In this document: in pieces, positions 3,001 to 6,000 of the stretch
Numbering within the stretch: position 1 is the first letter of the stretch
Layout: each line of letters opens with the position of its first letter
IMG/VR virus record: IMGVR_UViG_2703719365_000003
Strand: one strand, 5' to 3'
DNA from: a virus
Taxonomy: Duplodnaviria > Heunggongvirae > Uroviricota > Caudoviricetes
DNA length: 6,085 nt
Program-made: the position numbers

Positions 3001-6000
3001 GATGTATGGGGTAACCAATGCGGCACACCATCCATTGAGATGGTTCCGGGTATTGTTAAATTTCTGGAGAAAACCAATGAGCGAAAAAACGACGTTGACA
3101 AAGGCATCACCAGTTGAATTAAGGCAGTGTCTGGAAATCGCAAATCAACTTGCCAGAAGTGGAATACGATTTGTTCCAATCCCGATTACAGCAGATGCAG
3201 AACTTCATCTGTTTGGTGAAATTCTTTCCCGAAAGCTGGATGAACTGGAAAAGCTGGTAGAAGAAGCTGACACCTCACTAACCGTATAACAGCCCCACCG
3301 ACATTAAAATATCAGGAGAAAAAAATGAACGCAGTGCTCACAGAATTGAACAAATTAGGAAAAGCATCAGCCGAAAGTATTTCTAAAGGTCTCAATATTG
3401 ATTTGAATGACGTTATTGACACTCTATGGAAGTTAAAAAACCAGGGGGTAGTAACTGTAAAAAATGGCATCTGGCAGGCAGTTGCAAGGGAAGTGGACAA
3501 AAAACCAAATATCGCCCCAGTGCAGCCAGTGCAGCCAGTGCAGCCAGTGCAGCCAGTGCAGCCAGTGCAGCCAGTGCAGCACAACATTATAGGTGACCTG
3601 CTACGTAAATCACGGAAAGAAGCGCGCCGCGCCGGGCGGAAACAGAAACGATGGGAGGGTGCATGTAAGGCGTTGCAAGAACTGAATAAATACCGTGACT
3701 TGATCAACGAATTGTCAGAGTGAGCGAATCACAGAGAGAATATTTTGAGAAACAACCCGCGTACATTAATATTGTTTTTCCTTTCTCTAATGACGGGCGG
3801 TATCCTGTTATTCGCAGGAACAACATTATTTATTTTTGTTGCCCGGCTAACTGCGAGGATAATGACATGAAAATCACATTTGAAAGTTACGGTTTAACAG
3901 CAAGTGTGGTTATCTCCAGCTCTATATTCGAAAGCCGCAAACATCAGCATATCGTTGATGCAGTGAAACTCAAAGCCCCGGAAGTTACCGTCACAACACA
4001 TGGACTTTTCAGGATACGAACGACGTTGACTACAACACACCTCTCGGCATGCCGTGTTTATGATATGGCACTCAAGGAATACAACCAGTGTTCGTCCTGA
4101 TCCAGCGCGGGCAGTCTTTCGTTGATGCCAACAACTATCCGGTAGAAATATGCAAGGTAACTCTGACTCAGGTGATCTACCGAAGGCTCGACGGCAGAAC
4201 CAGAGCCACTTCAATTGGTGCATTTAATGAAGAATTTGAGCGAATAGAGCACAACGAACTGCATATGATTAAAGCGGAAATTGAGAAGGAAAAGCATATT
4301 GCCAGCCTTCGAAAAATGCGCCGTACATCAATCAACTAACAACCGCCTTCGGGCGGTTTATTATGCTGTTGAAAAACATGTAGAAAAGGAGAGCATACTA
4401 TGGAAATCAACTTAATGACCGAAAAAGAAGTTTCTGAGTTGTTACAAAAAAGGCGCACAGCTTTGTATAATTTGCGAAAAAAACACGGATTCCCTGATCC
4501 AGTACTTACTCATCCGGCGCGATATAGCCGTCAGGCCGTTGAACAATGGCTTAAATCCGGAGGAATTAACCGAGCTGTTTAGCGTGCCAGAAAATTTTAT
4601 CAGCATACAACTCATACGCATCTTTCTGTTCCGACAACCAGTCGTGTTTATTATACACGGCCATCACTCCTCCCAGTTCATGCCCCAGCATTTTTTCAGT
4701 GACGTGGGGCATAATTCCTTCCCCAGATAAATTCGTTACCAGAGAACGCCTAAAATCATGCGTTCTCCATTCAGGAATATCAATTTTCGCCCTGAGTTTT
4801 TTCATGTACAAATTAGCAGACGAACGGTCAATAGGTTTATCTATTTCCTGCCCAGGGAACAGCACATCAAATCCGATATTAAGCAATCGTTCAATATAAG
4901 GCTCAACCTGAGTAAATATCGGACGCCGGATAATATTACCCATCTTTGAATGCTCTTTAGGGGTTGTCCAGACCAGATCTTCCATGTTGAACTCACTGGC
5001 TGTAGCGAGACGTAGCTCAGAAAGCCTGGCCCCCCATAGCAATAGCAATTGATGTAACAGCTTGTTGGAAGTAACCACTTTTGAGTTCTCCAGTGCCAGC
5101 CAGATCTTTGCCAGTTCCGTATAGGTAAGTACGCGACTCCCCACATCTGGTTTCTTCCCAATATTCTTTACACTAAGTTTGAGTAATTCGCATGATGGGA
5201 TTAACTGGCGGCTGATACACCAGTTAATAACTGAACGCAGTTGTAACAACAGAACACGAGCCTTTTTCTTGTTGAGGCTTTCTTGCTTGTCAAAAAAGCG
5301 AACCCAAGCCGATACAGGGATACCGGCAACTGGCGAGTCTTCAAACTGTGTGTACATAGTGTTGTACACAACAGATCTATAAAGCGTCTGAGTATTGGGT
5401 TTCAGGCCGCTAACATACTTATCCCACCACTGATCCAGGCATTCTTTTAATGTCAATTCGCCATCACTGGGGGCAAAATAATTTTTAGGGTTAACTCCCT
5501 TCATGTACAATGCGCGCATCTCACCGACGATAACACGTGCGTCCTTCAGTGAAGTGGACGGATAGCGCCCGACAGTAAGACGTACTGGCTTACCATTCCA
5601 GCGATAACGGTACTGAAACGTGATAGTTCCTGCTGGAGTAATCCGCACACTTAACCCGTCACCATCGGTGATTTCAGCAGGGCCAGAGTAGGGTTTTCCG
5701 TATAGGCCTCGTAGTTTGGTGTCACTCAGTGCCAATGCTTTATATCCTGTACACAAGGTTATAATGTATTCTGTACTCAATATGTACGCATTAGCAAGTG
5801 AACAAAACACTTTTCAACGCAAAAGAAGATAATCAACCATGAACAAAAACGAACTTACACCTTGATTTTAAAACCATAAAGACGGTATTATCAGTCATAT
5901 GGTGAACAACCAAAATCAATACGCAACAACGTCCTCTTAGTTAAATGGATATAACGAGCCCCTCCTAAGGGCTAATTGCAGGTTCGATTCCTGCAGGGGA

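Follow-up and report, generated by a model that had tools for sequence, protein, structure and literature searches.

A window of 6,085 nucleotides (nt) from the IMG/VR virus record IMGVR_UViG_2703719365_000003 (Caudoviricetes; all positions below are those of this whole stretch) contains two small, overlapping open reading frames (ORFs), ORF1 and ORF2, which a preliminary description had interpreted as an autonomous bicistronic unit of the toxin-antitoxin (TA) kind, running from its own promoter to its own terminator. Our analysis leads to a different assignment. The two ORFs probably form the xis-proximal end of the exo-xis accessory region, which is transcribed from the early-left promoter pL, in a phi24B-type prophage at argW, and they are probably two independent accessory genes. 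The window itself represents the arm next to int in a phi24B-type Shiga toxin (Stx) prophage at argW, and its positions 3146-5957 show 99.7% DNA identity to nt 14-2825 of the Stx2 phage phi24B (HM208303). The features of the region under study are the following:

3724-3866, plus strand: spacer of 143 nt between the gene for a DUF1627 protein and ORF1, most likely non-coding.
3867-4100, plus strand: ORF1, 77 amino acids (aa), ATG 3867 to TGA 4100, phrog_1001, an optional cassette.
4088-4339, plus strand: ORF2, 83 aa, GTG 4088 to TAA 4339, DUF4222, phrog_285.
4341-4370, plus strand: terminator-like hairpin with a U-rich tail, the 3' boundary of the ORF2 module.

The length of ORF2 and the 13-nt overlap of the two frames (4088-4100) are as originally described, and ORF1, given before as 78 aa, encodes 77 aa, the 78 codons including the stop.

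The ORF2 protein and the phi24B protein vb_24B_1c share 100% identity, as do ORF1 and the 77 C-terminal aa of vb_24B_2c. Owing to this identity, published RNA-seq data for a phi24B lysogen apply directly to the genes of the window. Upon treatment of this lysogen with norfloxacin, vb_24B_1c rose 72-fold and vb_24B_2c 73-fold, and in the same induction xis rose 51-fold, kil 84-fold, cIII 70-fold and vb_24B_4c 105-fold, whereas int (1.7-fold), bor, stk and vb_24B_13c were unchanged (PMC4651098, Supplementary Information Table 4). The int gene of phi24B has an inverted orientation and is not coupled to CI, and xis is under the control of CI via pL (PMC3064807). As their induction is in step with that of kil, cIII and xis, ORF1 and ORF2 are CI-repressed delayed-early genes of the pL operon and not an autonomous cassette. 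Under repression by CI both genes are silent and, after induction, they are transcribed together with the early-left operon, as the published RNA-seq data show.

The exo-xis region of lambdoid phages is dispensable and transcribed from pL (Bloch 2013, PMC3824215). ORF1 and ORF2 lie on the pL strand between the recombination genes (exo/bet/gam) and xis, that is, in the niche that in lambda is occupied by orf60a, orf63, orf61, orf73, ea22, ea8.5 and orf55, which are likewise small, dispensable and pL-transcribed; their position immediately 5' of xis corresponds to that of lambda ea8.5 and orf55. No relationship to the lambda exo-xis ORFs was detected, the Pfam and PHROG matches being only DUF4222/phrog_285 and phrog_1001, and the predicted folds of ORF1 and ORF2 are unlike the homeodomain/zinc-finger fold reported for lambda Ea8.5. 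When present on a multicopy plasmid, the exo-xis fragment of phi24B impairs lysogenisation and enhances induction (Bloch et al., PMC3824215). According to our own coordinate conversion this fragment spans both ORFs, and the effect is that of the fragment as a whole.

ORF1 and ORF2 are separate, independently mobile accessory genes that abut by chance, and they do not constitute a co-dependent pair. Single-sequence word-index searches recovered close relatives only, and an alignment of the concatenated ORF1 and ORF2 was used for depth. A search with the DUF4222 profile yielded 80 IMG/VR loci, 55 of the ORF2 type and 25 of the BP-4795 type. ORF1 is located directly upstream in 27/55 of the ORF2-type loci, and 28/55 are devoid of ORF1. 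In the BP-4795-type loci, where the ORF2 relatives begin at an ATG with MFALIQRGQ, a gene of the ORF1 family is found at a distance of about 820 nt in 4/25 cases and none is found in 21/25. Conversely, members of the ORF1 family occur without a DUF4222 gene in Fels-1, in a Klebsiella pneumoniae prophage and in metagenomic prophages, and the DUF4222 hidden Markov model gave no match on the available sequence of these loci even at E <= 10. In four loci from Klebsiella or metagenomes (L092-L095), genes of the ORF1 family reside in early-left operons together with ParE-like, Band_7 or DndB genes.

Prophages of the ynfG type, which are integrated in ynfG and have the gene order recE, gam, bet, exo, ORF1 (in some members only), DUF4222, hairpin, xisD-like gene and int, include members that are otherwise isogenic and differ only by the presence of ORF1, and only a fragment of ORF1 is found in AU6Stx1 and SH2026Stx1. 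Homology breaks off at 3867, at 4060 and at 4362-4365, which shows the region to consist of three nested mosaic modules. ORF2 has its own Shine-Dalgarno-like sequence, AAGGA at 4074-4078, 9 nt 5' of the GTG, and both this site and the GTG start are kept in loci without ORF1. ORF2 would be translated from this AAGGA/GTG start, in prophages without ORF1 as well; in those that have ORF1, translation is probably coupled in addition through the 13-nt overlap. ORF1 is dispensable for ORF2. Degraded variants of ORF1 are consistent with its dispensability: a degraded cassette (P0039) encodes a 153-aa ORF1-ORF2 fusion in which, by reading of the sequence, the ORF1 stop has become an Arg codon and a frameshift has occurred; the match H134 begins at position 4030 inside ORF1 and adjoins a gene annotated as an IS3-family transposase, and an IS3 element may thus have inserted into ORF1; and in two IMG/VR loci (L012 and L022) ORF1 is truncated after residue 56.

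A promoter of its own had been proposed for the two genes. The site TTGAGA-N16-TAATAT is indeed present, with TTGAGA at 3745-3750 and TAATAT at 3767-3772, and matches a promoter at 9/12 positions. However, sites of this 9/12 type occur 13 times in the window versus 8.6 ± 2.8 times in shuffled sequences and, for this reason, the promoter-like site at 3745 is no better than chance. It is also missing in other genomic contexts of ORF1 and ORF2, and the spacer in which it lies is missing altogether where ORF1 comes directly after exo. In the ynfG-type prophages the genes start 25-48 nt after exo, which leaves no room for a promoter. With this chance-level site and an expression that is coupled to induction in the manner of pL genes, the idea of an autonomous promoter-to-terminator unit is not supported.

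The spacer (3724-3866) shows no significant RNA structure (z = -0.49), and no Rfam match was obtained for the region 3700-4400. It contains five single nucleotide polymorphisms (SNPs), of which 4/5 are non-synonymous in the frame that opens at GTG 3720 (codons read by hand), and all five are non-synonymous in the frame of a 41-aa hydrophobic ORF (3745-3870, its stop overlapping the ATG of ORF1), one of them destroying an internal ATG. As RNA structure was not found and the SNPs are mostly non-synonymous in both candidate frames, we treat the spacer as non-coding. The 41-aa ORF had been considered as the cistron of a membrane peptide; it had no family match in Pfam or PHROG, the stretch is missing in other contexts, and it was rejected as probably non-coding.

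The start of ORF1, for which GTG 3720 and ATG 3867 had both been considered, could be settled in favour of ATG 3867. The following observations support this choice and disfavour the long form. Distant relatives of ORF1 are all 73-77 aa long and have an N-terminus MKI or MKL; DNA homology between the window and the ynfG-type prophages starts exactly at 3867, 25 nt past the exo stop; the BFVD model of the 126-aa phi24B form superposes on the model of the 77-aa protein only over its last 77 residues; 4/5 SNPs of the spacer are non-synonymous in the long frame; and a Shine-Dalgarno-like GAGGA (3855-3859) is located 7 nt 5' of the ATG. The evidence therefore favours the 77-aa form over the phi24B annotation, in which the first gene begins at the upstream GTG and encodes 126 aa.

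Both ORFs were compared with diverged copies. The ratio of non-synonymous to synonymous substitution rates (dN/dS) was 0.33 for ORF1 against the 88.8%-identical copy in the locus L008 and 0.07-0.20 for ORF2 against copies that are 88-92% identical. In comparisons with 88-92% identical copies, substitutions in ORF1 as well as in ORF2 accumulate at third codon positions. By these dN/dS values both ORFs are real genes, with ORF1 under looser constraint. Two antisense ORFs, at 4177-4335 (52 aa) and 3704-3826 (40 aa), are probably over-annotations, and the substitutions fit the plus-strand frames. These antisense ORFs match phrog_31437 and phrog_37207 (E 1e-29 to 1e-33), families that probably derive from near-identical Stx phage records.

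For ORF1 the PHROG matches were limited to phrog_1001 and phrog_29320, both families without known function. It belongs to no Pfam family, and a scan of 14 members of the ORF1 family against Pfam gave no match either. An exhaustive representative search recovered 14 ORF1 relatives only, 3/14 being long proteins that match in several short stretches (5-9 per protein). A BFVD structure search returned only the phi24B protein itself. The predicted fold of ORF1 is a beta-beta-alpha-beta-beta-alpha two-layer sandwich with a mean local confidence score (pLDDT) of 92, and residues G9, S18, R24, H26, D31, G46 and R63 are conserved in the family.

ORF2 contains a domain of unknown function, DUF4222 (Pfam PF13973), with a score of 56.4 bits over residues 4-53 (cut-off 27). 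The only characterised DUF4222 protein, RgdR (ECs1581), scores 82 bits with the same model. RgdR is a basic protein of 99 aa that is encoded on a phage-inducible chromosomal island (PICI) or P4-like element (O-island 51/EcCI) of enterohaemorrhagic Escherichia coli (EHEC) O157:H7; it activates LEE1, in the enterocyte effacement locus (LEE), as well as type III secretion, is a repressor of motility and binds DNA irrespective of its sequence (PMC3378721, PMC10877973, PMC6092414). Its name refers to an RGD motif, and residue R20 is functionally important (PMC3378721). ORF2 can be classified as a divergent member of this RgdR/DUF4222 family, which agrees with the looser guess of the preliminary description, a small phage regulatory gene, and the DNA is phage DNA. 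The two proteins have in common a DUF4222 domain above threshold, small size, a basic C-terminal tail, a prophage-borne gene, the first two residues (R-G) of RGD and a number of residues in the core. RGD at the start of the DUF4222 domain is not conserved; in ORF2 the corresponding residues are R7-G8-Q9, R and G being kept and D replaced by Q. ORF2 has 83 aa as compared with the 99 aa of RgdR; its gene lies beside xis in a lambdoid exo-xis region, whereas rgdR lies beside a primase gene in a PICI/P4-like satellite, and ORF2, unlike RgdR, is expressed on induction. In the Sakai strain (ECs1581; L007 4305-4604), rgdR is directly 5' of the primase gene and overlaps it.

The structural model of ORF2 (pLDDT 88) consists of two parts, a Tudor/SH3-like barrel of five strands (residues about 10-53) and, C-terminal to it, a long basic helix (55-81). 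The isoelectric point (pI) is 9.35 for the whole protein and about 10 for its C-terminal 29 residues. No match was obtained when ORF1, ORF2 and both family profiles were compared with PDB sequences. By analogy with RgdR, ORF2 would most likely be a modulator that binds nucleic acids or the transcription machinery and acts on host or phage genes during lytic development. The barrel was set beside the Tudor domains that bind RNA polymerase (RNAP), namely the C-terminal domain of PcrA/UvrD and the RNAP-interacting domains of CarD and Mfd. That DUF4222 proteins are miniature CarD/PcrA-like RNAP-binding factors appears doubtful to us. An hhalign comparison of the DUF4222 profile with the C-terminal Tudor domain of E. 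coli UvrD gave a probability of 0.1%. E. coli K-12 XisR (YdaQ) was considered as a possible DUF4222 protein, a relationship that would have pointed to an excisionase-like ORF2; the xisR translation is lambda-Xis-like and unrelated to ORF2 as judged by eye, not with Pfam, and this candidate was dropped.

The UUCG terminator given for the end of the cassette could be corroborated in part. A hairpin, AACCGCC (4341-4347)-UUCG-GGCGGUU (4352-4358), starts 2 nt past the ORF2 stop and has a centroid energy of -11.9 kcal/mol; the region has a z of -2.8 and was beaten by one of 200 shuffles. In 53/55 ORF2-type loci this hairpin is invariant and directly 3' of the ORF2 stop. In the window the U-tract is interrupted (UAUUAUGCUGUU), and because the tail reads UAUUAUG a consensus terminator scan made no call at the hairpin. 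Four unrelated sequences are found 3' of the hairpin in the different contexts, and all are T-rich at their start: TTTAATGG, TTTTCTTAC, TTTCGATG and, as the weakest, TATTATG in the window. The tail is UUUUU(U) in the three other contexts. Being invariant and followed by T-rich sequence in all four cases, the hairpin would fit an intrinsic terminator that marks where the ORF2 module ends on its 3' side. To judge from lambda biology, N-antiterminated pL transcription probably passes through it and continues to xis.

Some observations weigh against the interpretation as two independent pL genes, of which one is related to RgdR. ORF1, when present, is always located directly upstream of ORF2 with the 13-nt overlap (27/27), and the ORF1 and ORF2 proteins may interact functionally. 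The fold change in the RNA-seq data may be compatible with a weak constitutive promoter at 3745. As for the terminator, the U-tract in the window is poor and the invariant stem shows no covariation, which leaves the terminator putative. The analogy to RgdR would extend to a shared domain only, the overall identity of ORF2 and RgdR being about 18-20%, and ORF2 has RGQ instead of RGD and lacks the N-terminal extension of RgdR.

Among the other explanations, we considered that ORF1 and ORF2, alone or together, could be early-left genes for host takeover or anti-defence, inhibiting a defence or another process of the host in lytic growth, like the nearby gam, kil and ral. Their location in the pL accessory region beside gam, kil and cIII and their early induction kinetics would agree with such a role, as would the faster evolution of ORF1 (dN/dS 0.33 versus 0.07-0.20) and its nature as an optional cassette, both common for counter-defence genes, and the altered lysogenisation and induction caused by the phi24B exo-xis fragment, which includes both ORFs, on a multicopy plasmid. 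However, homology to described anti-defence proteins was not found, the folds are generic, no target suggests itself and, for ORF2, the idea overlaps with the interpretation preferred here and is compatible with it. We regard this explanation as unlikely.

It is also rather improbable that the segment is a moron-type cassette for lysogenic conversion, in which a real promoter at 3745 would, together with the terminator, allow the repressed prophage to express an RgdR-like regulator and so adjust LEE and motility in a lysogen of Shiga toxin-producing E. coli (STEC). This explanation draws on RgdR, which influences LEE1 and motility from a resident element, on hosts that are LEE-positive O26, O111 and O157 STEC, on the layout of promoter-like site, genes and terminator-like hairpin, and on ORF1 being found in some and missing from other phages that are otherwise alike, with the hairpin flanking ORF2. 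It is at odds with the 72-73-fold rise together with the pL genes, as the lysogen-expressed int, bor, stk and vb_24B_13c remained flat; the promoter match is only 9/12, the ynfG-type genes 25-48 nt past exo leave no space for a promoter, and the RGD motif is not conserved.

There is very little to suggest that ORF2 assists the neighbouring xis/int as an accessory factor, whether architectural or for recombination directionality. DUF4222 genes do lie directly 5' of xis/int in lambdoid prophages with at least three integrase types, ORF2 is small and basic, and RgdR binds DNA non-specifically. Yet all contexts examined also contain a separate Xis, phi24B excision has been reconstituted with Int plus Xis (PMC3064807), rgdR is located beside a primase gene and not int in PICI and P4-like elements, and recombination of the ORF2 module does not depend on which type of int is present.

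The original idea of a type II TA or abortive-infection pair, with one toxic and one neutralising protein and its own autoregulated promoter, is extremely improbable: the resemblance to type II TA operons lies in two small, adjacent, co-oriented and overlapping genes, but ORF1 and ORF2 differ from such operons in family homology, obligate pairing and a supported promoter, given that Pfam, NCBIfam and PADLOC returned no toxin, antitoxin or defence match for either of them, that their folds are unlike known toxin folds or the helix-turn-helix (HTH), ribbon-helix-helix, AbrB and Phd folds of antitoxins, that each gene is widespread without the other, that the promoter-like site is no better than expected by chance and is missing in other contexts, and that expression is coupled to induction and controlled by the phage operon. 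The TA reading is refuted on co-occurrence, with 28/55 ORF2-type loci lacking ORF1 and the ORF1 family occurring also without DUF4222, and it fails on homology and fold as well; the confident placement of ORF2 in an unrelated regulatory family is a further argument against it.

The interpretation as pL accessory genes is set in a conserved neighbourhood, with these adjacent genes in the window:

3325-3723, plus strand: gene for a DUF1627 protein (phi24B vb_24B_3c), upstream in the same operon.
4400-4582, plus strand: phi24B-type excisionase gene (HTH_17/AlpA-like), the next same-strand gene after ORF2.
4566-5735, minus strand: phi24B-type tyrosine integrase gene, convergent with xis, its attachment site adjoining argW.

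Window positions 448-4582 form one unbroken string of plus-strand genes. The gene argW encodes tRNA-Arg(CCU) at 5931-6005 and is adjoined by the tyrosine integrase gene on the minus strand. Fogg et al. 2011 (PMC3064807) demonstrated that phi24B xis functions as an excisionase gene. By megablast, the segment 3300-4600 was present in 371/5426 complete E. coli genomes and was always chromosomal; among the matches listed for it, the best were to STEC such as O26, O111 and O157. In the O26 strain RM10386 it forms the int-proximal end of a lambdoid prophage with the order: Cro/CI-family and LexA-family (CI-type) regulators, a restriction-modification pair, Rha, gamL, recT, exo, ant, MT-A70 methylase, DUF1382, DUF1627, a hypothetical protein, DUF4222, HTH (xis), convergent int and argW. 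AU5Stx1 shares with this O26 genome the order ant-MT-A70-DUF1382-DUF1627-ORF1-ORF2-xis, convergent int and argW, and the same arrangement is found in TL-2011c, P13374 and many Stx1a/Stx2a phages, where its distance from the int end is always about 2 kb. The phage phi24B, with vb_24B_1c and vb_24B_2c, and the Traversvirus Stx phages AU5Stx1, TL-2011c and P13374 have the gene order and the xis/int module in common; phi24B annotates both genes as hypothetical only.

Some further features of the window were observed. The 3' ends of xis (plus strand) and int (minus strand) overlap convergently by 17 nt (4566-4582), as in phi24B, and transcription of each gene is thereby antisense to the end of the other. 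The DUF1627 gene contains a perfect 9-nt tandem repeat, CCAGTGCAG, in 7.1 copies at 3517-3580, which encodes (PVQ)n. Matches to the segment 3300-4600 elsewhere were 1337, 1310 and 1292 nt long versus 1301 nt in the window (+36, +9 and -9), and these match lengths suggest that the copy number of the repeat varies between strains, the positions of the indels being presumed. Two tandem paralogous genes for AntA/AntB-type antirepressors, with near-identical C-terminal halves, lie at 478-1116 and 1372-2007 (plus strand), and phi24B and AU5Stx1 have a single antirepressor copy at the position of this pair. Each of the two is preceded, at about 40 nt, by a match to the Rfam family sRNA-Xcc1 (RF02221), located at 347-436 and 1243-1331 (plus strand) with 65.4 and 69.5 bits (gathering score 53). 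Strong sigma-70-like promoters (226-255 and 1129-1158, with 10/12 and 11/12 matches) and a short hairpin with a T-run precede each of these matches, so that promoter, terminator-like hairpin, Xcc1-like RNA and ant look like a duplicated unit. The sRNA-Xcc1 family has been reported from integron cassettes and from the APSE phage.

Annotations of both genes already exist for phi24B and for hundreds of STEC genomes, and to have found them here is in itself ordinary. The analysis corrects the start of vb_24B_2c to the 77-aa form and shows the two genes to be independent mosaic modules, and a confident Tudor-like model is now available for DUF4222. It also links an uncharacterised exo-xis gene of Stx phages to the family of the virulence regulator RgdR, and this link suggests that induction of Stx prophages could feed into the control of LEE and motility.

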